A DNA stretch of 64,000 nt from Eledone cirrhosa (Eukaryota), in contig OZ024741.1 in assembly GCA_964016885.1 (NCBI GenBank), positions 133,796,001 through 133,860,000 on the forward strand, given 5' to 3'. Positions 2,244-60,532 of this stretch are shown here, piece by piece (position 1 is the stretch's first letter; every line of letters begins with the position of its first letter). The position numbers and the translations under genes were made by a program. The notes below the pieces were generated by a model that was not told the DNA's origin, did not search any database, and worked only from the letters and a program-made list of their open reading frames with translations.

Positions 2244-2950
2244 TATTGAAGTTTGCTTGAAGCATTGTGGAACAATAAGTAAATATTTATAAGTCGTTTG
2301 GAAGCCTCGATAATGCAAATGGGTAAATCTCCGGGTAACAAGGTCCGGTGGTGGAGAGAGAGATATGTAAGTGGGTGTACGTTGAGATGCGTGGTGTGTA
2401 TAAGATGTGTGAGATGTGTAGAATGAAGGGAAGAGTAAAAGAATAAAAATAATAATAACAACACAAGAGAGAGAGTTACCTTGGGAGAGATTTAATAGTC
2501 CCTATATATTTCGGATTCACATCCATCAACTGGGGTTTTTTCCGGGGTGGGGGAAAAGGTTGTCTGTCGGACAACTCGGAACGTGACTTTCGCTGTTTGT
2601 TGATTTGAATATCTGAGGTATTCGGCTGAGTGCGCGTGCGCGTGAAATGGGGTCGGTCGTACAGAGGTCAGCGGCCGAATGAGGGAGTGGGATGGCGCTA
2701 GCTGTCAGTCCATTCTCTGCCTGTTTGTTAAATGTTACTGTGTGTGTGTGTGCGTGTGTTGCTGTCTCGCTTGAGTGTGTGTGTGTGTGTGTGTGTGCGT
2801 GTGATGTTGCCTTGTTCATCTGTATTGGCAGTGTAGTATGTTCGTATGGTGGAATGCTACTGTGTGTGTGTGTGCGTGTGTGTGTGTAGTTGTCTCGTTT
2901 GCGTGTGTGTGTATGTGCGTGTGTTGTGTGTTGTTGCATCGCTTGTTAAA

Positions 2951-3978
2951 TTAAACCAGCCATTTCATTTCGCTTCTCTCTAATCGGTTGTTTATTTGCG
3001 GTTGCAGTTGTTTGATAAGAAGCGCTTCCTTAATACGTAACGTGCCGACGTTTCTTTCAGTCGCTAGAATTGTGACAATGGGCCTTCCGTCTTTGTTTCC
3101 GCATTTGTCTATGTGTTTCCGGAAAGACGAGGCCCTGGTTTTAATGTGTTCCTTGATCCGGATGTGCAAAGGTCGAATTGTGCTACCTATGTAGTATTGG
3201 TTGCACCTGTCACATTCTATCTTATACACGACGTATGTGCGTAGGCAACAGTTAGCATGGCGTATCGGGCAGTCTCTGAGGGAGCATGCGTCAGTAGATT
3301 TTTCGGGTTTTCTGGAGAGGCATCTTCGCAGGGAGGGGCCCGAGTGGGCCAGGTGGATGTCGAGGCCCTCCCTCCGTATAGCCTTGCGGATAGCGTTGGT
3401 GGTTTTCTCGCCCAGGTGTGGCATTTTAAGGAAGCACTTGCCTTGGGTGCTTCTCTGTCTCTTGCGTCTGGTGTCTCCTATTCTGTCTGTGATCGAGGTA
3501 GGGTACCCGTTCGTCTCCAGCACCTCGAGGAATCGCTTGGTATGAGTGACACCACTCGCGGGATCGCTGCATCTGTTTTTGATTCGCGCGATCTCGTTCG
3601 TGATGTATCCTCTTTTGGCACTGTTAGGGGGGGGGGGCAGACTTGTAGTGAACGAATAGGTCCCTGCAGGCTGCCTTTCTGTAGAAGTTGCAGTGGATCC
3701 CTCCTTGTTCCGTGATGTTGATTCGGAAGTCGAGGAGGGCAAGTGACCCGTCTTCGTTGGGGTGTTCAACACTGAAGTCAATGTTCTCGTCCGTGTTGTT
3801 GAACGTCTCGTAGATTCTGTTCGCCGTGTCTTGGGAAGATGTGAGGATGAGGATATCGTCCACGTATCTTGAGAAAAAGGCTACGGCGTTGGGGTGGCAG
3901 GCGTTGAGAGCCTTTCGTTCGAGGTTGTCCATGTAGGAGATCGCTAGCAAACCTGATAGACTTGATCCCATCGGCAAT
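2951..3978 (-). pseudogene. PLE RT (GLPMGS, RYVDD) plus GIY-YIG endonuclease (VVY...YIGST...RIKEH); frameshift at the G-run near 3627-3638
   Basis: ORFs 3624..4016 and 2951..3781 join at the homopolymer. The first residues of the 4016 ORF come from the inverted pLTR. Confidence 0.9.
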
Positions 3979-8355: not shown

Positions 8356-8471
<116 letters not shown>

Positions 8472-9686
8472 AAAGTTTTATTTAAATTGTTGGGATACAA
8501 CAAGCAGATATTTTTATAACTGATATAAAGCACTCGACAAATATTTGGAGTAGATATACGATATTAATAAATGGAAACTATATTTATAAAACCATATTTA
8601 TTTCATTATATATATTTCAAGGATACCAAGTTACATTATGGTATGCCTTCATCAGACAAAATACAATATATAACAGTTTTATAAATAGACATTGACGTAC
8701 CCCTTTTAAAAATTGACCGTTGTATTTGGAGGCCATCAGGATAGTGATTTGTTTACTTTAGTAAGTCATAGTGTTAAGAGTAAGTAAAAAGATGGAGAGA
8801 GAGAAACATGGAGAAAAGAGAGGGAGAGATAGATAAAGAAAAAGAAGAAAACAAAAAGAAAAGAGAACAGAGGAAAAATAACGGGGAGATATCAAACCAT
8901 CAGACAGAGAAAAAAATCCAGAGAGAGACATATAGAGATAGAGAGAGGGGGGAGAGAACGAAAGCCCTAAGTTATGTCATATTAAGTTGAGTTAACAATT
9001 GGGATGAAAAGCATAAATAAAATTAGAAATATTAATATTCATGAATGGAATATAGATATATAATATGAGAAATTACACATTGTTTAATTATGATTAGATA
9101 TTTAGTTTAAAATTGAGATCAATATATTAAAAATTGGAATTTAAACATTATAAAATATATATATTGCTAGAGAGATTATCAATCTCATATTACATACACA
9201 TAGGCAAAGGTACATAAATATATATATATACACACTCACTCAGAAAATACACATTATATCTACTCCCGCACATAATATACATATACAAAGCATAAGTGAT
9301 TTTTTGCCATACATTCCCTGTGTTATTAATTAAAAATTAAAAGTTTTTAGTATATATATATAAATATATAGCTATACATGAATAGATATGTGTGTGCATC
9401 TTCAATTGGTATACACGCGTCACTCATGCATATATACAGACAGACATATAATCATAAAAAAGCATATAACACATGTATATGTATGTCAACACACACATAT
9501 AGATACATTAGCCGTATATAGATATAATCAACATATAACATAGTACAATTGAGTATATAAAATATAAAAGGATTATATTTTGGAAATATAATTATATCAA
9601 TATAACTTAAAAAGCAAACGAATTCTACAAATATCAAAATATTAAAATATCCCAAAATATTATAGAATATTTTAAGTTAAAATAAT

Positions 9687-9860
9687 TGTTTCTACTTTTA
9701 GCACAAGGCCAGCAATTACCCAGTGCATTACTGGTACTTTATTTTATCGACCCCGTAAGGATGAAAGGCAAAGTCAACCTCGGCGGGATTTGAACTCAGA
9801 TTGTAAAGGGACGTAACTATGCTGGAAAGCATGGCGTCCGACTCTCTACCGATACTGCTA
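9687..9860 (-). mobile_element. tRNA-derived SINE nested in the left arm of family D, TSD AAAATAAT
   Basis: Absent from the right arm (12610-12620). TSD at 9679-9686 and 9861-9868. B box GAGTTCAAATC. Confidence 0.9.
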
Positions 9861-10071
9861 AAAATAATATGTTTAATATATTTAGTATAGAAATTAATCT
9901 TACGTATATTTTAATCAAGATATTGAAAGGACGAACTTTTGAAAATTATGAGAAGCTCTCAGAATAAAAATAAATCTAATAAAAATTATGAGAAGCTATC
10001 AGAATAAAAACAAATCTAATAAAAACAAATCTAATAAAAATTAAAAATAAAATGAATCTAATAAAAAAAAA

Positions 10072-11836
10072 ATGTATAATGCATGTATAATGCATGAACT
10101 AGACATTGAAAATAAAACACAACCCTTCATGCCAAGGAAACCTAAGATCAATATGAAGGATCATAAAAGAAACTTTGAAAATGATTTACCAGTCAGATTA
10201 ATTGCACCATCTAAATCTGACCTGGGCAGACTTAGCAAAAATATTCTAGACAGAGTAATACAACAAATTAAGAATTTACCTAATTTATCTTACTTAAAAT
10301 TATGGAAAGGGACTAGTGAGGTTATCGATTGGTTTAAAGAAATTAAATATAACTATAATAATAAGTTTATTCAGTTGGATATTGCTAACTACTACTCATC
10401 TATCACTCCTAATCTACTGAATAAGGCACTAACTTACGCATTTAAACATACAGACCTAACTAGAAATGAAATGCACATTATATTATCGGCACGGAAAACA
10501 TTAATAGAATTTAATAACCAACTCTGGACTAGGGCAGATAGAAATAATAATTTCGACATAACTATGGGATCTTCAGACTCAGCTCAGGTAACGGACCTTG
10601 TGGGCCTATTTATAATTAATTCTCTACATAGAAAAATACCAGATGTAACCGGAGGCTTATATCGTGACGACATGCTTTTACTTATAGAAAATAATAGCTG
10701 TGAACTAAATAGAAAAAGAAAACAAATTATACAATTTTTTAATTACCTTAATCTAAAAGTAGAAATAGAGAATAACCATAAAATAGTCAATTTTCTAGAT
10801 GTAACACTAAATCTCAACACATATCTTCATTATCCATTTCACAAACTAAATGAGAACTTAAATTATGTCAATTTTAACTCTAATCACCCCCAGATCCGTT
10901 AAAAATACTATAGTGAACTCTGTTCAAAAACGAATTTCAAGAATTGCATCTAATAAGAATATATTTGATGAAAAAGCGCATTATTACAATGAAGCGTTAG
11001 GTAGAGCTGGGTATAGAAATAAAATTAAATACATCGATAATAATAATAATATACAAAATAACCAAAATAATAACAACTTTAATTATGGTAACAATTTCAA
11101 CAACCATAATAGAAAATATTACTATAACTCCGAAAGCCGAAAAAGAAATAGAACTAGGAATATATTATGGTTCGCTCCCCCTTTCTCACTAAATATTAAA
11201 ACCCCTATTGCTAAACTATTCTTTAAAGCTCTTGACAAACGATTCCCTAGAACACATAAATATTACTCAATCTTTAATAGACATACTATAAAATTAACCT
11301 ACTCTTCCACCAAAAATTTAGCGCAAAATATTAATAGAATTAATAATAGAAATTTAGAACCTAACCAAAACACCAATAATAAACCAAGCAATATTCAATC
11401 GAATAACTGTAACTGTAGAAATAAATCCAACTGTCCGTTAAATAACAACTGCTTAGCTAAAAATGTAGTTTATAATTGTAATGTTAAAACTAATTTAAAT
11501 TCATTTAACTATGTCGGTTCTACCTCTACAGAATTTAAATCCCGCTTCAATAATCATAAAAATTATTTTACAGATCCAAACAAAAAATCTTCAACTTCGT
11601 TATCTAGCCTATTCTGGGACCTAAAACGAGATAATGTTGAATATTCGCTGATTCGGAATATTATTTCAAAAGCTACTCCTTTTAATTCCTCTTCAGAAAA
11701 TTGTGACATTTGTATAGAGGAAATATTTTTTATATTAAAGACCAAAAATTCCCTTAATTTAAGGAATAATTTATTCAGTTGCTGCAGACATAGATTGAAC
11801 TCAACGTTTAAATATAAATATAAATTTAAAATGTAG
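10072..11836 (+). pseudogene. PLE RT (QLDIANYYSSI, MGS, YRDD) plus CNC linker and GIY-YIG endonuclease; one frameshift near 10890
   Basis: ORFs 10072..10902 and 10865..11836; motifs CNCRNKSNCPLNNNCL, VVY, YVGST, CDICIEE, SCCRH. Possibly Hydra-clade PLE (inference). Confidence 0.9.
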
Positions 11837-13732
11837 TTTAATTAATTAAGTAATTTAGTTAATATATCTAACCTGTCGATAAATCATTAGATTCCTTCAC
11901 CTTTTTCATTTTCTTTGGTTAAGTACCCAAGTATAAATTTTCTTCATAAATATAATTATAAATATAATAAACTATTCTAGAAAAGTTTATCCTTTCAATA
12001 TCTTGAATAAAATATGCGTAAGATAAATTTCTATACTAAACATATTATTTTAGCTTAAAATATTCTATAACATTTTAAGAGTTTTAACATTTTTTTTAAT
12101 TTTTAAATATTTTTGAAATTTTAAAGATTTAAAAAAAATTTTTTTGAAATTTTTTTTGAAATTTTTAAAAATTTTTTAAAATTTTTTATAATTTTTTTTT
12201 AATTTTTAAAATTTTTTAAAATTTTTAAACATTTTTTTTAATTTCTTTATTTTTTATTTTTTATTTTTATTTTTAAACTTTTTAATATTTTGATATCTGT
12301 ACAATACTTGTTTTTTAAGTTATATTGATATAATATTTTATTTTTTATTAGATTTATTTTTTATTAGATTCATTTTTTTTTTTATTAGATTCATTTTATT
12401 TATTTTTTTTTTTTTTATTAGATTCATTTTATTTTTTATTTTTATTAGATTTGTTTTTATTAGATTTGTTTTTATTCTGATAGCTTCTCATAATTCTTAT
12501 TAGATTTATTTTTATTCTGAGAGCTTCTCATAATTTTCAAAAGTTCGTCCTTTCAATATCTTGATTAAAATATACGTAAGATTAATTTCTATACTAAATA
12601 TATTAAACATATTATTTTAACTTAAAATATTCTATAATATTTTGGGATATTTTAATATTTTGATATTTGTAGAATTCGTTTGCTTTTTAAGTTATATTGA
12701 TATAATTATATTTCCAAAATATAATCCTTTTGTATTTTATATACTCAATTGTACTATGTTATATGTTGATTATATCTATATACGGCTAATGTATCTATAT
12801 GTGTGTGTTGACATACATATACATGTGTTATATGCTTTTTTATGATTATATGTCTGTCTGTATATATGCATGAGTGACGCGTGTATACCAATTGAAGATG
12901 TACACACATATCTATTCATGTATAGCTAAGAATTATGGATGTGAATGTACAGGCTTACACATGCAGTTTTTTATTGCACATATGCATAACTTAACAGCCA
13001 TAAATGCATGAAAGTTAATCCTATATATTTATATATATATACTAAAAACTTTTAATTTTTTTAATTAATAACACAAGGAATGTATGGCAAAAAATCACTT
13101 ATGCTTTGTATATATATATTATGTGCGGGAGTAGATGTAATGTGTATTTTCTGAGTGAGTGTGTATATATATTTATGTACCTTTGCCTATGTGTATGTAA
13201 TATGCGATAGATAATCTCTCTAGCAATATATATATTTTATAATGTTTAAATTCCAATTTTTAATATATTGATCTCAATTTTAAACTAAATATCTAATCAT
13301 AATTAAACAATGTGTAATTTCTCATATTATATATCTATATTCCATTCATGAATATTAATATTTCTAATTTTATTTATGCTTTTCATCCCAATTGTTAACT
13401 CAACTTAATATGACATAACTTAAGACTTTCGTTCTCTCCTCCCTCTCTCTATCTCTATATGTCTCTCTCTGGATTTTTTTCTCTGTCTGATGGTTTGATA
13501 TCTCCCCGTTATTTTTCCTCTGTTCTCTTTTCTTTTTGTTTTCTTCTTTTTCTTTATCTATCTCTCCCTTTCTTTTCTCCATGTTTCTCTCTCTCCATCT
13601 TTTTACTTACTCTTAACACTATCACTTACTAAAGTAAACAAATCAATATCCTGATGGCCTCCAAATACAACGGTCAATTTTTAAAAGGGGTACGTCAATG
13701 TCTATTTATAAAACTGTTATATATTGTATTTT

Positions 13733-13760
13733 GTCTGATGAAGGCATACCATAATGTAAC
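13733..13760 (+). ncRNA. Hammerhead-shaped motif with GAAA replaced by ATAA (also 8630-8657 minus; related copies near 43355 and 44260)
   Basis: GT CTGATGA A GG-cata-CC ATAA TG TA AC. Confidence 0.35.
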
Positions 13761-13830
13761 TTGGTATCCTTGAAATATATATAATGAAATAAATATGGTT
13801 TTATAAATATAGTTTCCATTTATTAATATC

Positions 13831-13876
<46 letters not shown>

Positions 13877-14096
13877 CGTTTCTGAATTTGTTTAGCAAGA
13901 TTCTTTATCTGAAATCGTGTGTTGAAACCGATATTGTTATACTTTGGGAGGGTCATGTTGCCAATAAGAAACACACGTACCAGTTGCTTTCACTTCAATT
14001 TATTATATATTTATAAATTTATAAATTTACAAATCTACAAACTTATACATTTCTGGTTGGTTAGTTGGTTCCACAACCAGATAGTTGTTTATATAT

Positions 14097-14141
14097 AGTC
14101 ATAGTCCTTTCGTCACACACTCTGTGACCTCTTCAGTGACT
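14097..14141 (-). ncRNA. Type I minimal hammerhead ribozyme of family B (3' pLTR copy)
   Basis: AGTCA CTGAAGA G GTCACA-gagtg-TGTGAC GAAA GGAC TA TGACT. Confidence 0.85.
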
Positions 14142-14345
14142 GGGGATTCCTTTCTTTGTTTCTGTGCCTTTCCTTTCTTCTGTCCTACGCCATTTTGTTT
14201 CTGTGTGTGTGTTGTGTGCTCAGTTTGCGCATGCGCCACATCCGGGTGTCTGTTTGTGTTTGTGTTCATTTATCTATTTGTTTATTTATTTACATGTTGT
14301 TGGTTGGTTGTTTGTTCTATGTGTGTGTGTGTTTTCATTTTGTCC

Positions 14346-17300
14346 TTAATTGTAAGTTGTGATGTTGCTGTTCCACTCATATTTTCTATTTAATTTTGGA
14401 TGTAATTCTTTTATGCTTACTGCCTCTGTAATTTGCCTAAACATTGCATCTTTTCTGTGTGTGGATTCTATTTTTATTTCTATGTTCTCTAATTTACCCT
14501 TGTGTTCTAGCTTAGCATGTTGGTAGAGTACAGATGATTCTTTATTATCTTGAAGGTCTCGCCAGTGTTCATTTATCCGTTCCCCTATACTACGAGCTGT
14601 CTGACCTATGTACACTATATTTTTGTTTCTACATTGTCCTTCAGTACATCTTATGCTATACACTACATTTCTAGTTTTACAGTTAATATGGGGGCTTATT
14701 TTACAGGTTATACATTTCTTATCTATACATGAGGGTCTTTGGAACGGGTATGTCTTGCTAATAAGTGTTTTTACGGAGGTACCTGGTCTTTCTACTATCT
14801 TAATATTGAGTTTATGTTTATTTAGGGCCCTTCTAAATTTGTAGGCTAGTTCGCCTCTAGGGGTTGTATTGATGAACATTACACTCTGGTATTTATTGCT
14901 ATCATACCATGAGTTTATTCTATTGGCCTTGTTCCTAGTTCTTTCTATTCTATTCCAAAATTTGCTCCTATACAAGGGGCAGGTCCCATTTATGTCATTA
15001 TTTACCATTTTTTCCCATTTGGTTCTGGCTCCTCTATACACTCTGATTCTATCTCTCTGATTGTAGCCAGAGAACTGCATACGGTGGATGAAGTGTTGTA
15101 TGTGTCTCTCTAGTTCTTCGGGGTTGCACATGCGGGACACATTTCTCATCACCCGTACCAAATCCGCAATCAGTATGTTGATTTTGGTATGGTCCGAAAT
15201 GGCCGAGTTTCGGTGGATCAGATGTTTGGAAGTCATGGGTTTGGCATAATGGGAATGGAGGATTTGTTTTTGGTTGTTAATGGTATCTAACCAGAGCTCT
15301 GTGTCTAGTACAGGTAATCGATGGTTGGGGTGTCTACTTGGGTAGTCTATAGTAACTGTAATGCTCTGGTGGATGGAGTTTGCTATTTGCTGGATGCTTT
15401 CCATTGTGTTTTTCTCTAGTTCCTGACTGTTCTCTAGTGGGGGTGTCTTAACTACGATGTTATATCATCTACGTAGCGGGAGTACATTATCAGGGTTAAG
15501 CTGTCTTCTAATTGTTCTTTAAGTTTAAGTTTAAGTCTACTGTCCCACCATACCATGAATAAGTTAGCTATGTCGCCTGCAATGCTAACACCAATGGCTG
15601 CTCCTTCCTCTTGGGCATATGTTTTTCCATTAAATTTGAACATATGTTCCTTAAGGGTTAATTTTATGCTGGCCCCTACCGCATGTGCAATCATTTTCTT
15701 CAGTTCATCGTGGTTTTCGGATGTCCGTATGGCTCTGGTCCACCCGTTCCATCTATCTGTGTGGGTTTTCTTGGCCATTGAGGTAATGGTAGGTGGTCTG
15801 CCTCTTGCTGGTCTTGTAGGGCACAGGTTGCTAAGGTCATAAGTGTCTAGGTAACTATTACTATGGGTAAGCTTAAGTAGAAGTCCCAGCTCACTGGTAT
15901 CAATCCCACGGAACTCAACCTTGCTCTCGCTGATCATTTCTCCACATTTCTCCACAGCAAAATCCACGTCAATAGATGGATACAGGGACACAACATCCAT
16001 ACTGCCTATTATGCAGTTTGTTAGGTCCCCAGATCGGTTACACACGCCGATTCTTCTGAGGAGGTCCTCCGTGCTGTCACATACATCTGGGGACATCTCA
16101 ATGATGGGGCGTATGATCAGGGAGAGGAAGTAGGACAGTCTGTAGTTACTAGCAATGTTAGCTCCACAGACTGGCCGTGTTGGTGGTCCCGCGACAGGGT
16201 CACAGCCCGTTTTGTGGTCTTTTCGAAGCCCATACAACGCCGGTACGTCATTGTTCCAGGCCTGGAAGTTGTTGGGAGTCCTTTTGTTGGGCTGCATTAT
16301 ATTCGTCCACATCACCATATGGGCATTGAGGGCTTTTTCTCTATCCTCATGCTCCTGTGGTGTTACCTCTCTTGTGTTAGTGATGTGGGGTTGCATTGCC
16401 TGGATGTAGTTTGGCAGGCTGTCAACCGACATTCTGCCAGACTTGTCTGTTGGAAAGCATGCTATCTCTCCATTACGTGAGCGCTGCATGAGCTTACGCA
16501 AGCCATTTGCAGATTTTTCTCCCAGTTGCTGGGCCTCTATTCTATTATGCTTCTTGCTATACTGTTCTATAATATTTCTAAGTTCGGATCTAGCTATACT
16601 AAATTGTGCTTCTGTTTGTTCATCGACCTGCGACGGCAACTGCGTGCGTTTGTTAAATGGTAAAGTCGTGGCGTGGACTCGTCGCAGGTCGAATGATTTA
16701 TCGGAGGGATTATAAAACGGAGAGTTCCAGGCTGCTGCTTTATGTGTACTAGTGCTATTGTTATTGTTAGTTGTGTTGTTTCTATTTCTATTTCCACCAA
16801 CAGCCTCATGGTTGTTTCTATGTCTCTCATAATTACTCCTGTCTCTTTCCACTGGCTCAATGTTGTTATCTACCCTATTTTGTGTGTCTGTGTGTTCGTC
16901 TTGGTTATTCTCTTTGTCCTTAGTCTCCCTTCTCCTTTTCCTTTTAATCCTATTACTTTCCCTTATTTCTGTGATTTCTGTGCTACTGTCATTACTTGTT
17001 TTCTGTGTCTGTGTGTTTGTTAAGATTGTGGTGGTGGTGAGAGGCATTGAATGCGTGTGTGTTGTTGTTGTTGATGTGTGCTGTTGTTGATGTGTGTTGT
17101 TGTTGTCTCCGTGTGTGTTATCGTTGTTGTGTGTGTTATTATTGTTGTTTGTGTCTGCGTGTCTGTTGTTGTTGTTTCTGGGTATGTTGCTATTGTTGTT
17201 GTTGTTGATATGTGTGTTGTTGTTATTGTTGTTTGTGTCTGTGTGTCTGTTGTTGTTGGGATGTGTGTTGTATATGTGTGTGCGTATATTGTTGCTTTTG

Positions 17301-18054
17301 TTTTTGATGCTCCAGCGTAGTTTTGTAAATGATTTTTCTATTTCTGACAGACAACTAATCAGATTTACCTTCTTGAATGTCGCAAATTTCGGCGGCAAAA
17401 ATAACACAGACATTTCATCATTATCTATTTTTGCGTTCCCATAAATGTTGGTGTTTTTGTTGTTGAACTCTTCTGATAATGAGGTGTCGGCCATGTTGAT
17501 ACCGTCAATTTTGTCGGGATATCTATTGGTATACTCTATAGTATCCTGATTTAGCTTTGCCTGTTTAAGCCACTTTAGTTTCCTGTTAAAGTGCTTATCA
17601 CATTCTTGAGTAATGTACTGTTCTTCAGGGCGTATAAGGCTTATAATATTAGTTTCTCTCTTGGTGTGGTGATTCTAGCTATTTCTTGTATTAGGTTACG
17701 CTTTTGTTTTTCTTGATGACTTAATTCTCTATAGATCTTCTTTTTTATGTTTAGAATTAATGTTCGTTTTAGCCTATCTGCTTGTTTTTTGGTGAGTTGT
17801 AATCTTCTAACGTCGGTATTGATGGTGTAGATTCTGGAAGAGGCACACTGCTTTATGAAGGATAGTTGTCGAGATGTTATGGTTTTTCGTAGACAACAGA
17901 ACATGGTGGTTTTCAGTATCTTGTTAGCCTGGCTAGGGCTTACGATATTTCGTTTCTGAATTTGTTTAGCAAGATTCTTTATCTGAAATCGTGTGTTGAA
18001 ACCGATATTGTTATACTTTGGGAGGGTCATGTTGCCAATAAGAAACACACGCAC
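14346..18054 (-). pseudogene. Full-length PLE polyprotein (about 1230 codons): N-terminal domain, Asn-rich insert, RT, Cys linker, GIY-YIG; two frameshifts (near 17640 and 15455)
   Basis: ORFs 17641..18054, 15452..17494 and 14346..15404; motifs TRPVC, GSMDVVSLYPSI, QEEGAAIG, RYVDD, NVVY, YIGQT. The 15455 shift is one missing A relative to the copy at 37580. Confidence 0.92.
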
Positions 18055-18170
18055 CAGTTGCTTTCACTTCAATTTATTATATATTTATAAATTTATAAAT
18101 TTACAAATCTACAAACTTATACATTTCTGGTTGGTTAGTTGGTTCCACAACCAGATAGTTGTTTATATAT

Positions 18171-18215
18171 AGTCATAGTCCTTTCGTCACACACTCTGTG
18201 ACCTCTTCAGTGACT
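18171..18215 (-). ncRNA. Hammerhead ribozyme of family B (5' pLTR copy)
   Basis: Same sequence as 14097-14141, about 120 nt upstream of the ORF start. Confidence 0.85.
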
Positions 18216-18898
18216 GGGGATTCCTTTCTTTGTTTCTGTGCCTTTCCTTTCTTCTGTCCTACGCCATTTTGTTTCTGTGTGTGTGTTGTGTGCTCAGTTT
18301 GCGCATGCGCCACATCCGGGTGTCTGTTTGTGTTTGTGTTCATTTATCTATTTGTTTATTTATTTACATGTTGTTGGTTGGTTGTTTGTTCTATGTGTGT
18401 GTGTGTTTTCATTTTGTCCTTAATTGTAAGTTGTGATGTTGCTGTTCCACTCATATTTTCTATTTAATTTTGGATGTAATTCTTTTATGCTTACTGCCTC
18501 TGTAATTTGCCTAAACATTGCATCTTTTCTGTGTGTGGATTCTATTTTTATTTCTATGTTCTCTAATTTACCCTTGTGTTCTATCTTAGCATGTTGGTAG
18601 AGTACAGATGATTCTTTATTATCTTGAAGGTCTCGCCAGTGTTCATTTATCCGTTCCCCTATACTACGAGCTGTCTCACCTATGTACACTATATTTTTAT
18701 TTCTACATTGTCCTTCAGTACATCTTATGCTACACACTACATTTCTAGTTTTACAGTTAATATGGGGGCTTATTTTACAGGTTATACATTTCTTATCTAT
18801 ACATGAGGGTCTTTGGAACGGGTATGTCTTGCTAATAAGTGTTTTTACGGAGGTACCTGGTCTTTCTACTATCTTAATATTGAGTTTATGTTTATTTA

Positions 18899-20012
18899 CA
18901 TCGTAGTTAAGACACCCCCACTAGAGAACAGTCAGGAACTAGAGAAAAACACAATGGAAAGCATCCAGCAAATAGCAAACTCCATCCACCAGAGCATTAC
19001 AGTTACTATAGACTACCCAAGTAGACACCCCAACCATCGATTACCTGTACTAGACACAGAGCTCTGGTTAGATACCATTAACAACCAAAAACAAATCCTC
19101 CATTCCCATTATGCCTAACCCATGACTTCCAAACATCTGATCCACCGAAACTCGGCCATTTCGGACCATACCAAAATCAACATACTGATTGCGGATTTGG
19201 TACGGGTGATGAGAAATGTGTCCCGCATGTGCAATCCCGAAGAACTAGAGAGACACATACAACACTTCATCCACCGTATGCAGTTCTCTGGCTACAATCA
19301 GAGAGATAGAATCAGAGTGTATAGAGGAGCCAGAACCAAATGGGAAAAAATGGTAAATAATGACATAAATGGGACCTGCCCCTTGTATAGGAGCAAATTT
19401 TGGAATAGAATAGAAAGAACTAGGAACAAGGCCAATAGAATAAACTCATGGTATGATAGCAATAAATACCAGAGTGTAATGTTCATCAATACAACCCCTA
19501 GAGGCGAACTAGCCTACAAATTTAGAAGGGCCCTAAATAAACATAAACTCAATATTAAGATAGTAGAAAGACCAGGTACCTCCGTAAAAACACTTATTAG
19601 CAAGACATACCCGTTCCAAAGACCCTCATGTATAGATAAGAAATGTATAACCTGTAAAATAAGCCCCCATATTAACTGTAAAACTAGAAATGTAGTGTAT
19701 AGCATAAGATGTACTGAAGGACAATGTAGAAACAAAAATATAGTGTACATAGGTCAGACAGCTCGTAGTATAGGGGAACGGATCAATGAACACTGGCGAG
19801 ACCTTCAAGATAATAAAGAATCATCTGTACTCTACCAACATGCTAAGATAGAACACAAGGGTAAATTAGAGAACATAGAAATAAAAATAGAATCCACACA
19901 CAGAAAAGATGCAATGTTTAGGCAAATTACAGAGGCAGTAAGCATAAAAGAATTACATCCAAAATTAAATAGAAAATATGAATGGAACAGCAACATCACA
20001 ACTTACAATTAA
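18899..20012 (+). pseudogene. Inverted duplicate of the family B RT thumb and GIY-YIG
   Basis: ORFs 18813..19118 and 19122..20012 are near-identical to 14346..15404; premature TAA at 19116-19118. Confidence 0.9.
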
Positions 20013-20216
20013 GGACAAAATGAAAACACACACACACATAGAACAAACAACCAACCAACAACATGTAAATAAATAAATAAATAGATAAATGAACACAAAC
20101 ACACACAGACACCCGGATGTGGCGCATGCGCAAACTGAGCACACAACACACACACAGAAACAAAATGGCGTAGGACAGAAAAAAGGAAAGGCACAGAAAC
20201 AAAGAAAGGAATCCCC

Positions 20217-20261
20217 AGTCACTGAAGAGGTCACAGAGTGTGTGACGAAAGGACTATGACT
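20217..20261 (+). ncRNA. Hammerhead ribozyme of family B (inverted copy)
   Basis: AGTCA CTGAAGA G GTCACA gagtg TGTGAC GAAA GGAC TA TGACT. Confidence 0.85.
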
Positions 20262-20419
20262 ATATATAAACAACTATCTGGTTGTGGAACCAACCAACCA
20301 ACCAGAAATGTATAAGTTTGTAGATTTGTAAATTTATAAATTTATAAATATATAATAAATTGAAGTGAAAGCAACTGGTGCGTGTGTTTCTTATTGGCAA
20401 CATGACCCTCCCAAAGTAT

Positions 20420-20514
<95 letters not shown>

Positions 20515-20620: not shown

Positions 20621-20654
<34 letters not shown>

Positions 20655-20889
20655 GTAATAATAATAAAATTGAAGACTAAAATCCAAACAGGGCTCGATA
20701 AGGAAAATATATATCAAATATATAAGAACCGTAGAGCAAATATTTATTAAAATAACAGATTAAAGTTTAAGCAAAGAATCGCTGCTTTCACCCTTAACGG
20801 GATCTTCTGAAACTAACAAAGTCAATCTGTAAACGCAGAACTGGATATTTCAAAAAACGTTGCAACTGCGTTTACAGATTGACTTTGTT

Positions 20890-20940
20890 AATTTCAGAAG
20901 ATCCCGTTAAGGGTGAAAGCAGCGATTCTTTGCTTAAACT
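20890..20940 (+). ncRNA. Hammerhead motif of family C, A4 variant (5' copy; antisense copy at 20764-20814)
   Basis: A(G/A)TTT CAGAAGA T CCC-gttaa-GGG T GAAA GCA-gcgattctt-TGC T T AAACT. Confidence 0.7.
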
Positions 20941-21093
20941 TTAATCTGTTATTTTAATAAATATTTGCTCTACGGTTCTTATATATTTAATATATATTTT
21001 CCTTATCGAGCCCTCTTTGGATTTTAGTCTTCAATTTTATTATTATTACTATTTGGCTCCTTCGGTTGAGCACTCTACTGACTTATATTCATC

Positions 21094-23183
21094 ATGCAGA
21101 AACAACATCTGAATATTTCTACAAAGAACATAGCCGTACCAAGCAGGAAAACATACCTAAAACTCCTGATACAGAAAACAGACGCGTTCATTAAAAGGTT
21201 GCGTTGGCGTGCCTTTTATTTCGATAATCCGCGAAAAGCAGACAACAAACAGGATGAATTTGGATTTAAAACCTATAATAACCCTCCGTAGAACCCAGCA
21301 TTGCTACCCTTCGAAAATGATGTCTTGGAACTCATTCGGAGTATCAAATTTCGGAATAGGAGCAATTCCTTCCAGCAAGACCTGAAGAATAGAATTCGTT
21401 CTATTAAGGATTCTAACGCCGTGCACGTCCATTCCGACAAAACTGACAACCTATATCAAGTGGAGCGCAGTACTTACCATCAACTACTACATAATGCTGT
21501 AACTAAGGATTACCGTAAAACTAATCGGTGTGTCATCAATGAAATCAACGATGCTGGGTTTAAAATCACATCTGATCTCAACATCCTGGACCGGACCGAA
21601 CCTCTGGACCCTATCTCTCCCCACTTTACCCTGAAGATCACAAATCCAATTTTCCGAACAACCCCTCTATTCGGCTTATTAACCCTACGAAGTCCGATTT
21701 AGATAGACTTAGTAAAACGATTCTTGATAGAATTATACCTGAAATTAGAAGTTTGGCCCCTCTCGCACTGTGGAACAATTCTTTCGCGGTGATTGATTGG
21801 TTCAACGGCATATGTAACAAGGAACATTGCCGTTTTATCCAATTCGACATCAACAATTACTACTCCTCCATCACTTTACCACTTCTCCTTAGAGCTATCA
21901 ATTTCGCTAAAACACTCACAGTGGTTAAGGATTTCGAAGTTGATGTCATCCTTAATGCCCGAAAGTCGGTGATTAATTTCGACGACTCTATTTGGATTAA
22001 AAAATCCAATAGTACCCCATTCGACGTGAGTATGGGCGCCAGTGACTCTGCGGAGGTTACTGATCTTATTGGCCTTTTCCTTCTTATTTTCTATCAAGGA
22101 CGAATTCCCCAACGCGGGCGGTGGTTTGTATCGTGACGATGGTCTTTTGACCATGACTAAGTGCGGACCTCGTGCTTGCGACAGGTTCAGAAAAGAACTC
22201 ACAGCCTTCTTTAAAGGCCAATCTCTCGGTCGTTAATTACCTCGACGTTACCCTCAATTTATTGAATGGGTTGTATTACCCGTATAGAAAGCCGAATGAT
22301 ACGCTTAATTACATAAGTAAGCATTCCAACCATCCTGCCAGCATAACCAAAAACCTGGTAAAAAACGTTTCGTTGAGGCTTTCCCGTCTTTCCACCAACG
22401 AGCGCATTTTCAACGACCATTCCACTTATTACAATGAAGCTCTTGCTCGAAGTGGATTTGTCGATATGGTAGCATATACAGAGTACGAAAATAGACCTAG
22501 AAGAAATAGATCCCGTCGCATTTGTTGGTTTAACCCACCATATAATATGGAGGTGGCCACACCATTAGCTAAGATCTTTCTTTCCCTTATTACGAAGCAT
22601 TTTCCCCCTACACATAAATATAGTAAAATTTTTAATAGAAATACTATTAAATTTTCTTACTCTACGACTCCTAACCTTGCACATAACATCACAGCTTCAA
22701 ATTTAGCTAAACTACCTAGCCGTAGGAACACGTGCAACCCTGTAGTTAGTACTAACTATAATTGTAGGAATCGGGCTGATTGCCCCCTATCCGGGAAATG
22801 CCTCTCTAGTAACATTGTCTACAAATGTAAGGTTGTAACACCCACGTCCCGTAGGGCCTACATAGGGTTAACCGCCAATAGTTTCAAGCAGCGTCTTTAC
22901 ATGCATACCCATTCTTTTCGTTACCTTCTAAGAAGGAATATGACGTCACTTTCAGCTTATATCTGGAGTCTAAAAGACAACCACACCCAAGTTACACTGG
23001 GAGATCCTAGCTAGGGGTAGATCGTATAACGGAAATAAAAGACCATGTGACCTCTGCGCCGCTGAGGCCCTGGAAATACTCTACGCCACAGACCACAAAA
23101 AATCTGAGGCAATTTCGGCTTGTAAACATAAATTGCACAAAACTTTCCTGTATTACAGCCCCACGTTATACCCTAACGGATAG
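21094..23183 (+). pseudogene. PLE RT (YRDDGL) plus CxC linker and GIY-YIG, several frameshifts or stops
   Basis: ORF pieces 21094, 21301, 21753, 22042 and 22172; motifs STKNI, RLRWRA, QFDINNYYSSI, MGA, YRDD, WFNPPY, IVY, YIGLT. Confidence 0.92.
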
Positions 23184-24108
23184 CACGATCTATACGTGGA
23201 TATTTTACGTCTTGATGTGGGAGCTAAGTATATGTTTTGTTTATTCCTTTACTTATTTGCATAGGTAAGTATATATTACCCGTATGTTTTGTGAAGGTAT
23301 GTATACCTTCTCGTACGTATATTTGACTGTTTGGCGTATAATTTTTACATATTCTGGTATTTAGGGTTTGGCTATGTGTATACGGGAGTTTTGCGTCTGC
23401 GTGAGTATGCAGGTTCGTACGTATGATGGGTGTGTGTATATGTGTACTTCTTGTTTTAGTTGACTTACGTCTCCGAACATTCGTGTATTTATTTGTAGGT
23501 ATGTGTGTGCGCTTGTTATATACGTATTTATTTACTTATATACGTTTATATAATTATTTATTTATTTGTACACAAGCATACACACACACATATTTATATG
23601 TGCGTGGTTTTGTATACCTATGGTAAGGTTTTGCGTATGCTTGTGTATGTACGTATCTGTTTGCGTGTATGTATTTATTTGTTTCTATTACTTCTGTATT
23701 GTATTTATTTACTTTGTTCTTAACTCTGTAGCGGAGATTCATTTGGTCTCCTAGTTAGAATTTTAGTCTACGACTTTTGCTATACCATTTACGTGGTTTT
23801 GTCTTTGCGTGCTATTGTTCTCCACGGTCCACATATGACTTATTATCTTCGTTTTTTCGTTCATTGCCAGAGAACGTCTCATTGCACCACCTAAGAGAAC
23901 ATTAGTCTACGACCTCTTTTATACCATAAACGTGGTTCTGTCTTTGCGCGTAATGGTTTTTCACCGCTCCTATTAATGACGTATTATTCGTTTTTTCCCG
24001 TTCTTTGCCAGCGAACGTCACCATGAACCAAAGTATCGTCTTCCTGTCTTCCTCCGGTTGCAACGTTTTTTGAAATATCCAGTTCTGCGTTTACAGATTG
24101 ACTTTGTT

Positions 24109-24159
24109 AGTTTCAGAAGATCCCGTTAAGGGTGAAAGCAGCGATTCTTTGCTTAAACT
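24109..24159 (+). ncRNA. Hammerhead motif of family C (3' copy)
   Basis: AGTTT CAGAAGA TCCCGTTAAGGGT GAAA GCA...TGC TT AAACT; three stems close around the core. Confidence 0.72.
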
Positions 24160-24172
24160 TTAATCTATTTTA

Positions 24173-24266
<94 letters not shown>

Positions 24267-41363: not shown

Positions 41364-42038
41364 CTAGCAGAATGGCCCGGTGTTTATCCCTCCTTTCTGA
41401 AACAGTACAGAGAAGTACGGAATTCCTCGGCCTCGGGATGGTGTCTACATTTTGTGCTTATAAAAAAAATTCGTCGTAGATTACCAGGGTTTTTTTTTAC
41501 CGTGCGAAGAAAATCAATACGTTATCGCAAAATAAATACTTTTGTTTATATTTTGTTATTGTGTATGCCAAAATATCTGTACACGAATATATAATTATAT
41601 ATATATATATATATATTAAAATAACAGATTAAAGTTTAAGCAAAAAATCGCTGCTTTCACTCTTAACAGGATCTTCTGAAACTAAAAAAATCAATCTGTG
41701 AACGCAGAAGTAAATATTTCGTAAAACGTTACACACAATATATATACACACACTATATATACATATATACACACACACATAGCGTCATAATGTCGTAATG
41801 TAGACAGCCAGACATACAGGCAGATATTATAAGGGTGCGACGTTATATCTATGTATCTATCTAAAAAGAAAGACTAAGAATTATAGAGATTGGGCATTGA
41901 ACATCTGAAATATGTTTTGCTCAAAACACTTACAGGACCATAAGTATTACATGTGTAAAGTTTGAAAACAATCGGTTGGGTGGTTCTCGAGGTTTAGGGA
42001 GTCAGACAGACAGACATTCTCTGTTTTAGATATAAAGA
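41364..42038 (-). mobile_element. Probable non-autonomous Helitron containing a family C pLTR fragment (41612-41732, hammerhead at 41633-41683)
   Basis: Minus strand starts A|TC near 42038 followed by (GTCT)n and ends CTAG|T at 41364. The internal segment matches 20745-20860. Confidence 0.6.
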
Positions 42039-55786: not shown

Positions 55787-55973
55787 TATAATATATATAA
55801 AGTATATAACAAAGAGGATGTGGTTAGATACCAGGTGGACCATAACACACCAGAATCCTCAATACTTAGGGATCTAACTGTCGAAACGGCCGGAGCTCAG
55901 CCATCGGGGTCCTGACTCTTCTTCTCTCTCGCTATCTCTCTCTCTCTTTCTCTCTCTCTCTCTATCTCTCCCC

Positions 55974-56015
<42 letters not shown>

Positions 56016-56021
<6 letters not shown>

Positions 56022-59000
56022 ATAATAATAAATTTGAAGACTAAAATCCAAAGAGGGCTCGATAAGGATAAATATATATCAAATATATAAGAACCGTAGA
56101 GCAAATATTTATTAAAATAGCAGATTAAAGTTTAAGCAAAGAATCGCTGCTTTCACCCTTAACGGGATCTTCTGAAACTAACAAAGTCAATCTGTAAACG
56201 CAGAACTGGATATTTCAAAAATCGTTGCAACCGGAGGAAGACAGGAAGACGTCATTAATAGGAGCGGTGAAAAACAATTACGCGCAAAGACAGAACCACG
56301 TTTATGGTATGAAAGAAGTCGTAGATTAATGTTCTCTTAGGTGGTTCATAGAGACGTTCTCTGGCAATGAACGGAAAAAACGAAGATAATACGTCATATG
56401 TGGAGCGTGGAGAACAATTGCACGGAAAGACAAAACCACGTAAATGGTATAGCTGAAGTCGTAGACTAAATTCTAACTAGGAAACCGAATGAATCTCCGC
56501 TTCAGAGTTAAGAAAAAAGTAAATAAATACAATACAGGGGTAATAGAAATTAAATAAATGCATACATACATTCAAATACGTATATACACAAGCATACGCA
56601 AAACACTTGCCATAGGTATACAAAACCACGCACATATAAATATGTGTGTGTGTGTGCGTGTATACAAATAAATAATTAAATAAACGTATATAAATAAATA
56701 AATACGTATATAACAAGCGCACCCACATATCTACATGTAAATACACACATGTTCGAAGACGTAAGTCAGCCAAAACATGAAGTACACATATACACACACC
56801 CTACATACGTACAAACCTGCATACACACGCAGACGCAAAACTCCCGTATACACATAACCAAACCATATGTACCAGAAAATATGAAAAATGTATACGCCAC
56901 AACATAATCAATCAAATATACGTATGAGGAAGTATACGTACCTTCACAAAACATACAGGTAATATATACTTACCTATGCAAATAAGTAATGGTATAAACA
57001 AAACATATACTTAGTTACCACATCAAGACGTACAAAATCCACGTATAGATCGTACTATCCGTTAGGGTATAATGTGGGGCTGTAATACAGGAAAGTTTTG
57101 GGCAATTTATGTTTACAAGCCGAAATTGCCTCAGATTTTTTGTTTAAGATGCGGTCTGTAGCGTAGAGTATTTCCAGGGCCTCAGGGGCGCAGAGGTCAC
57201 ATGGTCTTTTCTTTCCGTTATACGATCTAGCCCTAGCTAGGATCTCCCAGTGTAACTTATATTGGGTGTGGTTGTCTTTTAGACTCCAGATATAAGCTGA
57301 AAGTGACGTCATATTCCTTCTAAGAGAGTAACGAAAAGAATGGGTATGCATGTAAAGACGGTGCTTGAATCTATTGACGGTTAACCCTATGTAGGCCCTA
57401 CGGGACGTGGGTGTTTCAACCTACATTTGTAGACAATGTTACTAGAGAGGCATTTCCGGATAGGGGCAATCAACCCGATTCCTACAATTACAGTTAGTAC
57501 TAACTACAGGGTGGCACGTGTTCCTACGGTTAGGTAGTTTAGCTAAATTTGAAGCTGTGGTGTTATGTGCAAGGTTAGGAGTCGTAGAGTAGGACATTTT
57601 AATAGTATTTCTATTAAAAATGTTACTATATTTATGTGTAGGGGGGAAATGCTTCGTAATAAGGGAAAGAAAGATCTTAGCTAATGGTGTGGCCACCTCG
57701 ATATTATATTGTGGGTTATACCAACAAATGCGACAGGATCTATTACTTCTAGGTCTATTTTCGTACTCTCTATATGCTACCTTATCGACAAATCCACTCC
57801 GAGCAAGAGCTTCATTGTAATAAGTGGAATGGTCGTTGAAAATATGCTCGTTAGTAGATAGACGGGAAAGCCTCAACGAAATGTTTCTTACCAGGTTCTT
57901 GGTTATGCTGGCAGGATGGTTGGAATGCTTACTTATGTAATTAAGCGTATCATTCGGCTTTCTATACGGGTAATACAACCCATTCGATAAATTGGGGGTA
58001 ACGTCAAGGTAATTAACGACCGAGAGATTGGCCTCAACCTGCATAGAAAAATAGAAGCCTTTAAAGAAGGCTGTGAGTTCTTTTCTGAAGCACGAGGTCC
58101 GCACTTAGTCATGGTCAAAAGACCATCATCACGGTACAAACCACCGCCCGCGTTGGGGAATTCGTCCTTGATAGAGAAAAGAAGGAAAGGGCCGATAAGA
58201 TCAGTAACCTCCGCAGAGTCACTGGCGCCCATACTCACGTCGAATGGGGTACTATTGGATTTGTTAATCCAAATAGAGTCGTCGAAATTAATCACCGACT
58301 TACGGGCATTGAGTATGACATCAACTTCGAAATCCTTAACCACTGTGACTGTTTTAGCGAAATTGATAGCTCTAAGGAGAAGTGGTAAAGTGATGGAGGA
58401 GTAGTAATTGTTGATGTCAAATTGGATAAAACGGCAATGTTCCTTGTTACATATGCCGTTGAACCAATCAATCACCGCGAAAGAATTGTTCCACAGTGCA
58501 AGAGGGGCCAAACATCTAATTTCAGGTATAATTCTATCAAGAATCGTTTTACTAAGTCTACCTAAATCGGACTTCGTAGGGTTAATAAGCCGAATAGAGG
58601 GGTTGTTCGGAAAATTGGATTTGTGATCCTTCAGGGTAAAGTGGGGAGAAATAGGGTCCAGAGGTTCGGTCCAGTCCAGGATGTTGAGATCAGATGTGAT
58701 TTTAAACCCAGCATCGTTGATTTCATTGATGACGCACCGATTAGTTTTACGGTAATCCTTAGTTACAGCATTATGTAGTAGTTGATGGTAAGTACTGCGC
58801 TCCACTTGATATAGGTTGCCAGTTTTGTCGGAATGGACGTGCACGGCATTAGAATCCTTAATAGAACGAATTCTATTCTTGAGGTCCTGCTGGAAGGAAT
58901 TGCTCCTATTCCGAAATTTGATACTCCGTATGAGTTCCAAGACATCATTTTCGAAGGGTAGCAATGCTGGGTTACACGGGGGTTATTATAGGTTTTAAAC

Positions 59001-60218
59001 CCAAATTTATCCTGTTTGTTGTCTGCTTTTCGCGGATTATCGAAATAAAAGGCACGCCAACGCAACCTTTTAATGAACGCGTCTGTTTTCTGTATCAGGA
59101 GTTTTAGGTATGTTTTCCTGCTTGGTACGGGTATGTTCTTTGTAGAAATATTCAGATGTTGTTTCTGCATGATGAATATAAGTCAATAGAGTGCTCAACC
59201 GAGGGAGCCAAATACGCATAGTACGATCTATACGTGGATATTTTACGTCTTGATGTGGTAGCTAAGTATATGTTTTGTTTATACCATTACTTATTTGCAT
59301 AGGTAAGTATATATTACCTGTATGTTTTGTGAAGGTACGTATACCTTCTCGTACGTATATTTGATTGTATATGTTATGGCGTATAATTTTATATTTTCTG
59401 GTACATATGGTTTGGTTATGTGTATACGGGTGTTTTGCGTCTGTGTGGTTATGTAGGTTCGTACGTATGTAGGGTGTGTGTATATGTGTACTTCATGTTT
59501 TGGTTGACTTACGTCTCCGAACATTTGTGTATTTACATGTATGCATGTGTGTGCGCTTGTTATATACGTATTTATTTATTTATATACGTTTATTTAATTA
59601 TTTATTTGTATACACGCATACACACACACACATATTTATATGTGTGTAGTTTTGTATACTTATGGTAAGTGTTTTCGCGTATGCTTGTGTATGTACGTAT
59701 TTGCATGCGTGTATGTATTTATTTAATTTCTATTACCTCTGTATTGTATTTATTTACTTTGTTCTTAACTCTGAAGCGGAGATTCATTCGGTCTCCTAGT
59801 TAGAATTTTAGTCTACGACTTCAGCTATACCATTTACGTGGTTTTGTCTTTGCGTGCAATTGTTCTTCACGCTCCACATATGACGTATTATCTTCGTTTT
59901 TTTCCTTCATTGCCAGAGAACGTCTCTATGAACCACCTAAGAGAACATTAGTCTACGATCTCTTTTATACCATAAACGTGGTTCTGTCTTCGCGCGTAAT
60001 TGTTTTTCACCGCTCCTATTAATGACGTATTATATTCGTTTTTTCCCGTTTTTTGCCAGGGAACGTTTCCACGAACCAAAGTATCGTCTTCCTGTCTTCC
60101 TCCGGTTGCAACGTTTTTTGAAATATTCACTTCTACGTTTACAGATTGACTTTGTTAGTTTCAGAAGATCCCGTTAAGGGTGAAAGCAGCGATTCTTTGC
60201 TTAAACTTTAATCTGTTA

Positions 60219-60226
<8 letters not shown>
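56016..60226 (-). mobile_element. Penelope-like element family C, copy 2, with an inverted 3' UTR arm of about 1 kb; hammerheads at 56129-56179 (minus) and 60157-60207 (plus)
   Basis: ORF pieces 59170..57055 are homologous to 21094-23183. 59214-60226 is inverted relative to about 56110-57062. (TA)n flanks. Confidence 0.95.
57055..59170 (-). pseudogene. PLE family C RT plus GIY-YIG, frameshifted
   Basis: ORFs 58763..59170, 57933..58964, 57442..58104 and 57055..57351. Confidence 0.92.
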
Positions 60227-60283
<57 letters not shown>

Positions 60284-60532
60284 GACGTAAAATAAGAAAA
60301 TTTTAAAAATTAAAAATTAACTTACTTACTAAAATTTTCACTCCAACTAATTAGTTTCTGTAATGGGATAAATATAATTTTTAATTTTTAATTTTTAAAA
60401 TTTTCTTATTTTACGTCTTTCATATAATTGTTCTGCATCCCCCTGCATGGAACCACCTAGGTACTTTGACATAACTTATATATTTGCTAGCATTAGTGTA
60501 CATCTGTACGCATATGTTGGTAGATGTACTAA

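Follow-up and report, generated by a model that had tools for sequence, protein, structure and literature searches.

A head-to-head insertion of a Penelope-like element

The window analysed here comprises 64,000 nucleotides (nt) of the Eledone cirrhosa genome (assembly GCA_964016885.1, contig OZ024741.1, positions 133,796,001 to 133,860,000 of the forward strand), and it carries several Penelope-like elements (PLEs), among them two long insertions of one family, which we refer to as copy 1 and copy 2. Our subject is copy 2 and the way in which it and its relatives elsewhere in the genome end: in most insertions of the family that have two 3′ ends, these ends lie at two different, fixed sites of the element, site A and site B. 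The features of copy 2 are as follows, in window positions; signed numbers are unit positions, and "ref" marks positions of the reference copy introduced below (RT, reverse transcriptase; cDNA, complementary DNA).

56016..60231: whole insertion, consisting of a main copy and a head-to-head inverted 3′ piece; both outer ends lie on (AT)n, and a target-site duplication is not resolvable
56016..59214, minus strand: main cDNA (copy 2), from +1/+2 to the 3′ site B, 3199 nt, with an internal deletion of ~59 nt near 56249
59214..60231, plus strand: second, inverted cDNA, which begins at site A (60231) and extends to the vicinity of the stop codon
57055..59170, minus strand: open reading frame (ORF) for RT and GIY-YIG with Hydra-type motifs, in copy 2 split into four open stretches in three frames
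56129..56182, minus strand: type I hammerhead-like motif of copy 2, core CAGAAGA...GAAA...CUU, predicted cut 56134/56133
60154..60207, plus strand: hammerhead-like motif of the inverted piece, predicted cut 60202/60203
56105, minus strand: position of 3′ site A inside the 3′ end of copy 2; an 89-nt "tail" spans 56105 to site B
56016..56019, minus strand: 3′ site B, TTAC/TAT on a (TA)n target, coinciding with unit positions +1..+3
59108..59170, minus strand: predicted 5′ arm of a long-range helix (+45..+107), folded on relatives
56198..56251, minus strand: predicted 3′ arm of this helix (ref 3029-3082), folded on relatives

Comparison of the window with itself shows an insertion of 4.2 kb whose two 3′ ends point outward: at 59214, copy 2 is fused head-to-head, with an overlap of 1 nt, to an inverted 3′ segment that belongs to the same family and measures 1018 nt (59214-60231), and this segment, too, terminates on (AT)n. 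The initial annotation had described copy 2 as exactly one monomer, opened about 115 nt downstream of the hammerhead and produced by an RT that went once round an RNA circle and stopped at its own primer. The letters on which this was based are present, in that copy 1 reads continuously through ...TTATTATTAC-TAT-TTGGCTCC at 21040-21060, while copy 2, on the minus strand, starts with TATTTGGCTCC at 59214 and ends with TTATTATTACTAT|(AT)n at 56016, and the predicted cut lies 115-118 nt upstream of that end. Nevertheless, the insertion is not one exact monomer, because 59214 is no insertion end but the point at which the inverted segment is attached, and the unit of copy 2 itself lacks ~59 nt near 56249. 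The joint is accurate to within ~3 nt; a finer statement fails because TAT could equally be part of the (TA)n target, and because the T at the 5′ end also belongs to the inverted piece. Beyond the inverted arm, and directly adjoining its flanking (AT)n, there is a near-perfect AT-rich inverted repeat (window 60279-60422), a hairpin or a structure like a miniature inverted-repeat transposable element.

Identity of the element and its hammerhead-like motif

Three relatives (L140, L130 and L101) carry an uninterrupted frame of 709 codons, a single ORF encoding an RT with a C-terminal GIY-YIG domain, with the motifs YRDD and NIVY...YIG. Its translation contains SDKT, RWR, a CxCX5C linker (CNCRNRADC), CxxC (CDLC) and CxH (CKH), and no CCHH was seen in it. 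Pfam and PDB searches with the family ORF gave no RT or GIY-YIG match; among its atlas neighbours at 0.96-0.99 there are GIY-YIG and RVT_1 clusters, which we take as a lead only. The architecture is that of endonuclease-bearing (EN+) PLEs, with a partial tandem (pseudo-long terminal repeat, pLTR), an inverted copy on the 5′ side and a tail confined to one end, as described in PMC8557442 and PMC3846280, and the 3′ flanks of family copies show (TA)n targeting.

Since the motifs and the (TA)n target agree with the description of the Hydra clade (PMC8557442: single ORF, DKT, RWR at the RWK motif, CxCX5C linker, CxxC/CxH around E/N, absence of CCHH, (TA)n target, partial tandems with an inverted 5′ copy and a one-end tail), the element matches, by its sequence, a Hydra-type EN+ PLE. 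It departs from the clade in the length of its unit (3.26 kb versus "generally <3 kb"), in its tail (89 nt versus 30-40 nt) and in its hammerhead core, which is non-canonical here.

As to this motif, the core CAGAAGA is present in 186 of 193 strings and has A instead of U at what we take to be core position 4, and a U.U pair stands next to stem II; the canonical hammerhead of the Hydra clade is thus not a feature of this family. An Rfam search over 55800-60500 returned no hammerhead match, only low-complexity miRNA-like matches far below the cut-offs, and the motif is not the lowest-energy fold.

Two 3′ sites and their mutual exclusion

To see how the family ends, we located its members by exact-match anchors, which occur at 580 places (anchor at +4) and at 856 places (anchor at about +347). 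The first 100 places of each list were mapped, all on contig C1 and 40 of them in common, together with 20 of the 24 places that have a break at +1 (three more were already included, and the remaining one is copy 2), and the duplicates L128 and L205 were removed. Coordinates refer to a natural copy, L003, with a unit of 3261 nt, in which site A is ref 3175 and site B is ref 3264, and the statistics on two-ended insertions use 157 unselected insertions on contig C1. All counts below therefore describe a single contig, with exact anchors that favour younger copies and with automated end calls; the family has at least 856 copies, and "private" variants are private within 51-106 sampled copies.

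The 3′ ends of the 99 long copies anchored at +347 fall at site A in 48 cases and at site B in 40, with 11 lacking a clear call. Site A lies ~29 nt past the predicted hammerhead cut, and site B is where copy 2 ends. The coincidence of ends that had appeared so unusual in copy 2 thus reflects one of two family-wide sites, and the initial annotation's prediction that unit-length permutations with various start points would be in excess fails, there being only these two 3′ sites. (TTA)n expansions between the pLTR and +1 were seen at site B in L089, L103 and L148.

The two sites exclude each other. Among the 157 insertions, 53 have two ends, and in 48 of these one end is A and the other is B (Fisher p 7e-10). 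Copy 1 mirrors copy 2, in that its inverted arm stops at the terminal base of copy 2 (20652) and its main arm ends 89 nt before the end position of copy 2.

20652..24180, plus strand: copy 1 insertion, with an inverted piece (20652-20866) from B and a direct unit running from 20866 through +1 to A (24180)

In four contig sets over 20700-21700, loose (TA)n ends were found at 20964 (A) and at 21052 (B). The exclusion also holds in both other PLE insertions of the window. For one of these, a Neptune-like family, we inspected the first 30 of 24,983 matches, and all ten head-to-head pairs with two true ends follow the exclusion, one end being classed by eye, while an eleventh pair had a read-through end. 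This pattern suggests that the two ends of the target are assigned to different sites in one and the same event.

5′ ends and read-through of the cut site

The 5′ ends, in turn, pile up around the unit start. Between -19 and +20, 28 of the 77 copies at risk stop, compared with 6.7 expected from the upstream rate (p 2e-11), and the excess is still present in the GC-rich interval +5..+20 (12 stops versus 2.8 expected, p 2e-5). In 15 of the 28 cases the 5′ end joins an inverted arm instead of (TA)n. Microhomology to (TA)n as the sole cause of the pile-up was rejected, because the pile-up persists at +5..+20 and with inverted joints. It is furthermore independent of the 3′ site, with 12 of 37 A-ended and 14 of 32 B-ended copies stopping in this interval (Fisher p 0.46), which is the outcome that the initial annotation had itself named as refuting it, and which contradicts a stop at the copy's own primer, since such a stop leaves the A-ended copies unexplained. 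More narrowly, a 5′ end at -1..+4 is found in 5 of 26 B-ended and 5 of 32 A-ended copies at risk (p 0.74), and it is the fate of about one in six copies that reach this point, whichever 3′ end they have. On the other hand, 49 of the 99 copies continue beyond +1 by over 20 nt, the farthest reaching -2072, and a weaker, broad bump of 5′ ends is seen at -50..-100, near A.

At the predicted hammerhead cut, we observed no such effect. Around the cut site (-101..-129), there was no 5′ stop in 1073 nt at risk, where ~2.4 would be expected at background, and a 5′ stop at the cut itself was not seen. Strings across the cut site are seamless in 219 of 221 cases and strings across B|+1 in 76 of 76, save for point or TTA-unit changes, with patterns that in both cases require both flanks. 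A linear cut monomer would be expected to stall or to leave a scar at the cut, and the seamless joints thus argue against such a template.

A probable common template for the parts of one insertion

Within an insertion, the two pLTRs and the inverted arm resemble one another more than they resemble other copies (mean rank quantiles of 0.14 and 0.08). Copy 2 apart, long repeats from the same insertion come out as sister tips every time (7 of 7 insertions). Moreover, 22 private variants are common to the 5′ and 3′ pLTR, where 0.65 would be expected, and 43 are common to the inverted arm and the 3′ part, where 1.05 would be expected. An uncleaved tandem transcript would retain two pLTR lineages, and the sister tips therefore argue against it. 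An apparent 5′/3′ polarity of variants (83:24) was rejected because it was traced to gap placement at one site; after re-alignment no polarity was present (36 on the same side, 28 on the opposite side). A MAFFT-based test of fragments proved noisy because of internal deletions and was replaced, and the weaker of the discordant flags that it raised (L147, L182, L214, L236 and L240) may be due to misalignment within an internal repeat.

Copy 2 itself deviates from this picture. Its own 3′ untranslated region has 16 linked variants that are common to L161 and missing from its inverted piece, and judging from these variants, the inverted piece is derived from a different RNA lineage than the main arm. 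Two different RNAs can thus apparently serve one insertion; among 34 inverted arms, L094 is a possible second case.

Mini-units and their multimers

Many short copies of the family join positions +25..+256 to ref 2940-3170, and their junctions follow an anti-diagonal (Spearman -0.79). In the folds of 15 copies, ref 3025-3082 is predicted to pair with +45..+107 in a long-range helix, and the hammerhead and both 3′ sites would lie inside it. For 26 short deletion junctions, the distance to the helix register is at most 12 nt in ten cases, where 3.5 would be expected (p 3e-4). The fold of the helix region is no better than that of shuffled sequences (z 0.09; rank 7 among windows of the unit), such that the support for the helix comes from the register of the junctions and not from folding energy.

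A search for multimers, defined by repetition of the motif at +13..+28 within 480 nt, returned 21 matches, which fall at 14 places; as it picks out repeats, it proves their existence and not their frequency. Ten of the 14 places are 2- to 7-mers that repeat their own junction, with units of 151-410 nt, and identical mini-junctions are repeated up to six times within one arm; locus-specific junctions of this kind include 124|2983, 74|3052 and 38|3147. The remaining places are an interrupted dimer (L127), two insertions with different junctions (L162 and L266) and one without a mini-unit (L250). In L254 and L268, the inverted arm bears the junction of the main arm as well. A single ancestral mini-family with the junction 121|2983 was rejected, because the micro-sequences differ among nine matches.

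Nine of the ten multimer loci retain the hammerhead-like motif. The exception, L254 (G000:C2:61196573-61197643), is a heptamer of a 151-nt unit that lacks the core and has its 3′ end, unusually, at +36. Its unit and the monomer L308 are two independent junctions that begin exactly at the predicted cut, and with L159 and L123 there are four whose junctions lie at or 3-4 nt past it. The two exact cases give a hint that the variant ribozyme may cut in vivo.

Three further loci deserve mention. L245 and L259 (G000:C2:273.376-273.383 Mb) are separate multimers, about 5 kb apart, that have a 406-nt unit in common and contain 4 and 6 junctions. L258 (G000:C2:210.40 Mb) is a trimer in which a 42-nt piece of the ORF (ref 1912-1953) is caught between the junction arms and repeated in each unit. 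In L138, the end of the inverted arm, ref 3018, is the point at which the main arm jumps to +111.

A model of insertion and its alternatives

What we observe, then, are insertions with two arms and outward 3′ ends, exclusion between A and B, about half of the long copies extending past one unit, shared variants and multimers. From these sequences we infer that the RNA may be circular; what blocks the RT at B, whether the ribozyme is active and whether an insertion draws on one RNA or two are likewise matters of inference. Our preferred reading, which we consider probable, is that the two ends of a break in (TA)n prime at the fixed sites A and B of a circle-like template and so yield a two-armed insertion. 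The GIY-YIG nuclease, which is predicted to be a dimer in a relative from Anolis, would cut both target strands, whereupon one 3′-OH would pair with site A, which is AT-rich, and the second with B, and each RT would run back across the hammerhead site without stopping. The leading RT would circle once and often, in about a third of cases, halt just before B (+1..+20), which is where the primer/cDNA hybrid or a bound protein would sit; otherwise it would displace this obstacle and continue, regenerating the 5′ pLTR off the same RNA. The two cDNA ends would then be joined head-to-head. Copy 2 would be an ordinary product of halting at B, with a second arm that was likely copied off another RNA molecule. 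Jumps of the RT across the predicted helix would likely make the mini-units, which, once circularised, could give rise to tandem multimers in the manner of retrozymes. The part of the initial annotation that retains support is the circle-like template with an RT halting near a primer at B: its argument from a single copy fails, and the support comes from the family, through seamless read-through, the lack of a stop at the cut site, repeats off the same template and rolling mini-multimers.

Several observations weigh against this reading. Five of the 53 two-ended insertions use one site twice (1 A/A, 4 B/B), and a stop at the own primer is weak at A (2 of 22 A-ended versus 0 of 16 B-ended copies at -89..-83, p 0.5). 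The pile-up at +1..+20 could alternatively mark a transcription start or a block by protein or structure, instead of a primer. The different lineages of the two arms of copy 2 mean that one RNA with two primers is not universal, and gene conversion is a possible source of shared private variants. L162 and L266, with different junctions in one insertion, indicate that the RT can jump de novo, and the 151-nt heptamer, which has no hammerhead core, could be a product of iterative jumping. The hammerhead core is non-canonical and without an Rfam match, and the Anolis PLE uses uncleaved RNA in vitro, with no need for cleavage (PMC11167929).

The alternative that survives best, although we regard it as unlikely, is a linear template with joined ends, i.e. 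a cut monomer, or an mRNA from about +1..+20, that is shut by the helix and stem I, with the RT jumping the gap by a telomerase-like translocation (PLEs are the sister group of telomerase). The 5′ pile-up would then be the 5′ end of the RNA or a protein-bound element, in agreement with its independence of the 3′ site. The predicted helix with ten of 26 junctions near its register, the four junctions at or 3-4 nt past the cut and the different junctions within L162 and within L266 are likewise in keeping with such a template. It is difficult to reconcile, however, with the lack of a stop or of a sloppy joint at the cut site, with the fact that B|+n or A|+n jump joints were not seen in the mapped insertions, with identical junctions occurring up to six times per arm, and with an overall fold of the region that does not surpass that of shuffles.

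Still less probable, in our estimate, is an uncleaved linear read-through RNA from a tandem donor, primed internally at A or B, in which the 5′ pLTR is the donor's own and the likeness within an insertion stems from young donors or from gene conversion. The in vitro data from Anolis (PMC11167929) speak for such a template, and read-through of the hammerhead, here with its variant core, needs no ligation. Yet, it predicts separate lineages of 5′ and 3′ pLTRs, and none were seen (7/7 sisters; polarity 36:28). B-primed arms should furthermore stop at the upstream A when the second primer is there, whereas the stops are at +1..+20, and multimers of locus-specific mini-junctions are not accounted for. 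Least probable of all is the version of the initial annotation (one primer, one circle, one turn, an own-primer stop and permutations at variable points), which fits the main arm of copy 2 within 3 nt and the pile-up of B-ended copies at +1 (14/32), but is refuted as stated, since it disregards the inverted arm and the restriction to two 3′ sites, the pile-up of A-ended copies is just as strong at B (12/37) and slight at A, and 49 of 99 copies pass the point.

A bolder generalisation of the preferred reading, two-site priming on a circle-like template, is that PLE integration is obligate two-site twin priming on circular RNA, and that the same RT continually spawns retrozymes by jumping a rod-like helix, with at least ten births with rolling-circle multimers here and one join exactly at the ribozyme cut. 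We put this forward tentatively, as a possibility with somewhat more to be said against it than for it. If true, obligate two-site twin priming would explain the one-end tail, the head-to-head inversions, the regenerated pLTRs and the stop beside the downstream primer.

Relation to known systems

In L1 twin priming, the second target end primes a second cDNA, which gives a head-to-head inversion. There, the second primer can lie anywhere upstream and the two cDNAs cover different parts of the RNA, whereas here the sites are fixed neighbours and the cDNAs cover the same stretch.

A close mechanistic parallel is Poseidon from Anolis, where two internal RT starts define the tail, both strands are cut and extended, and a dimer is predicted (PMC11167929). 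Two internal starts downstream of the hammerhead and AT-rich targets are common to both systems. The Anolis starts, however, lie inside the ORF and are described as non-homologous to the target, whereas those described here are upstream of the ATG, AT-rich and matching (TA)n; and while no strand difference in start site is reported for Anolis in the parts of that paper covered, the ends are mutually exclusive here. The same paper favours an uncleaved multimeric RNA, as opposed to the repeats here, which share one template. A circular PLE template was proposed in 2014, with hammerhead cleavage, ligation and more-than-unit reverse transcription leading to head-to-tail tandems (PMC4209133), as a tentative role and, as far as this text was covered, without end statistics or a two-primer rule.

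The mini-units resemble non-LTR retrozymes, which are tandems of 150-400-nt units with a type I hammerhead, derive from PLE pLTRs and are thought to roll on circles (PMC7761336; bioRxiv 10.64898/2026.07.22.740005). They differ from these in being near-identical deletion products of a resident family and in being known from DNA only; each locus here, moreover, has its own junction on the predicted helix and keeps the A/B ends of the parent, and one is without the hammerhead core.

How tandem and inverted PLE insertions are assembled, and what the hammerhead contributes, is stated to be open (PMC8557442, PMC7761336), and the two published views, a ligated circle (PMC4209133) and an uncleaved multimer (PMC11167929), disagree. 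On this, the locus of copy 2 alone decides nothing, but the family yields countable rules, namely the exclusion between A and B, a halt next to B, repeats from one template and multimers specific to their locus, which favour a circle-like template and single out exact sites, junctions and units of 151-410 nt. The idea of a circle is thus already published (PMC4209133), while a quantified A/B exclusion was not found in print: in the literature covered, from which subscription papers and supplements were excluded, we found it only in the qualitative form "tail often at one end", and we found no twin-priming model for PLEs, no stop beside B and no helix-tied multimers of locus-specific mini-junctions.

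Other elements in the window

Besides copies 1 and 2, the window contains the following members of this and other PLE families.

41609..41733, minus strand: short 5′-truncated member of the family, terminating at site A
13871-20427, minus strand: Neptune-like PLE with a canonical hammerhead, an Asn-rich ORF insert and two pLTRs, one direct and one inverted
about 8450-13840: second PLE of Hydra type, whose hammerhead is canonical (CUGAUGA)

The Neptune-like element has a 60-nt tail at its main end and none at its inverted end, and its end motif is the one with 24,983 exact matches in the genome. The second Hydra-type element is 38% identical to the family of copy 2 over 310 amino acids of the C-terminal part; it carries a tail on its inverted arm, and its main arm has none. 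At 2954-3880, on the minus strand, there is a further ORF fragment bearing a GIY-YIG domain (Pfam PF01541), which likely represents another PLE family.

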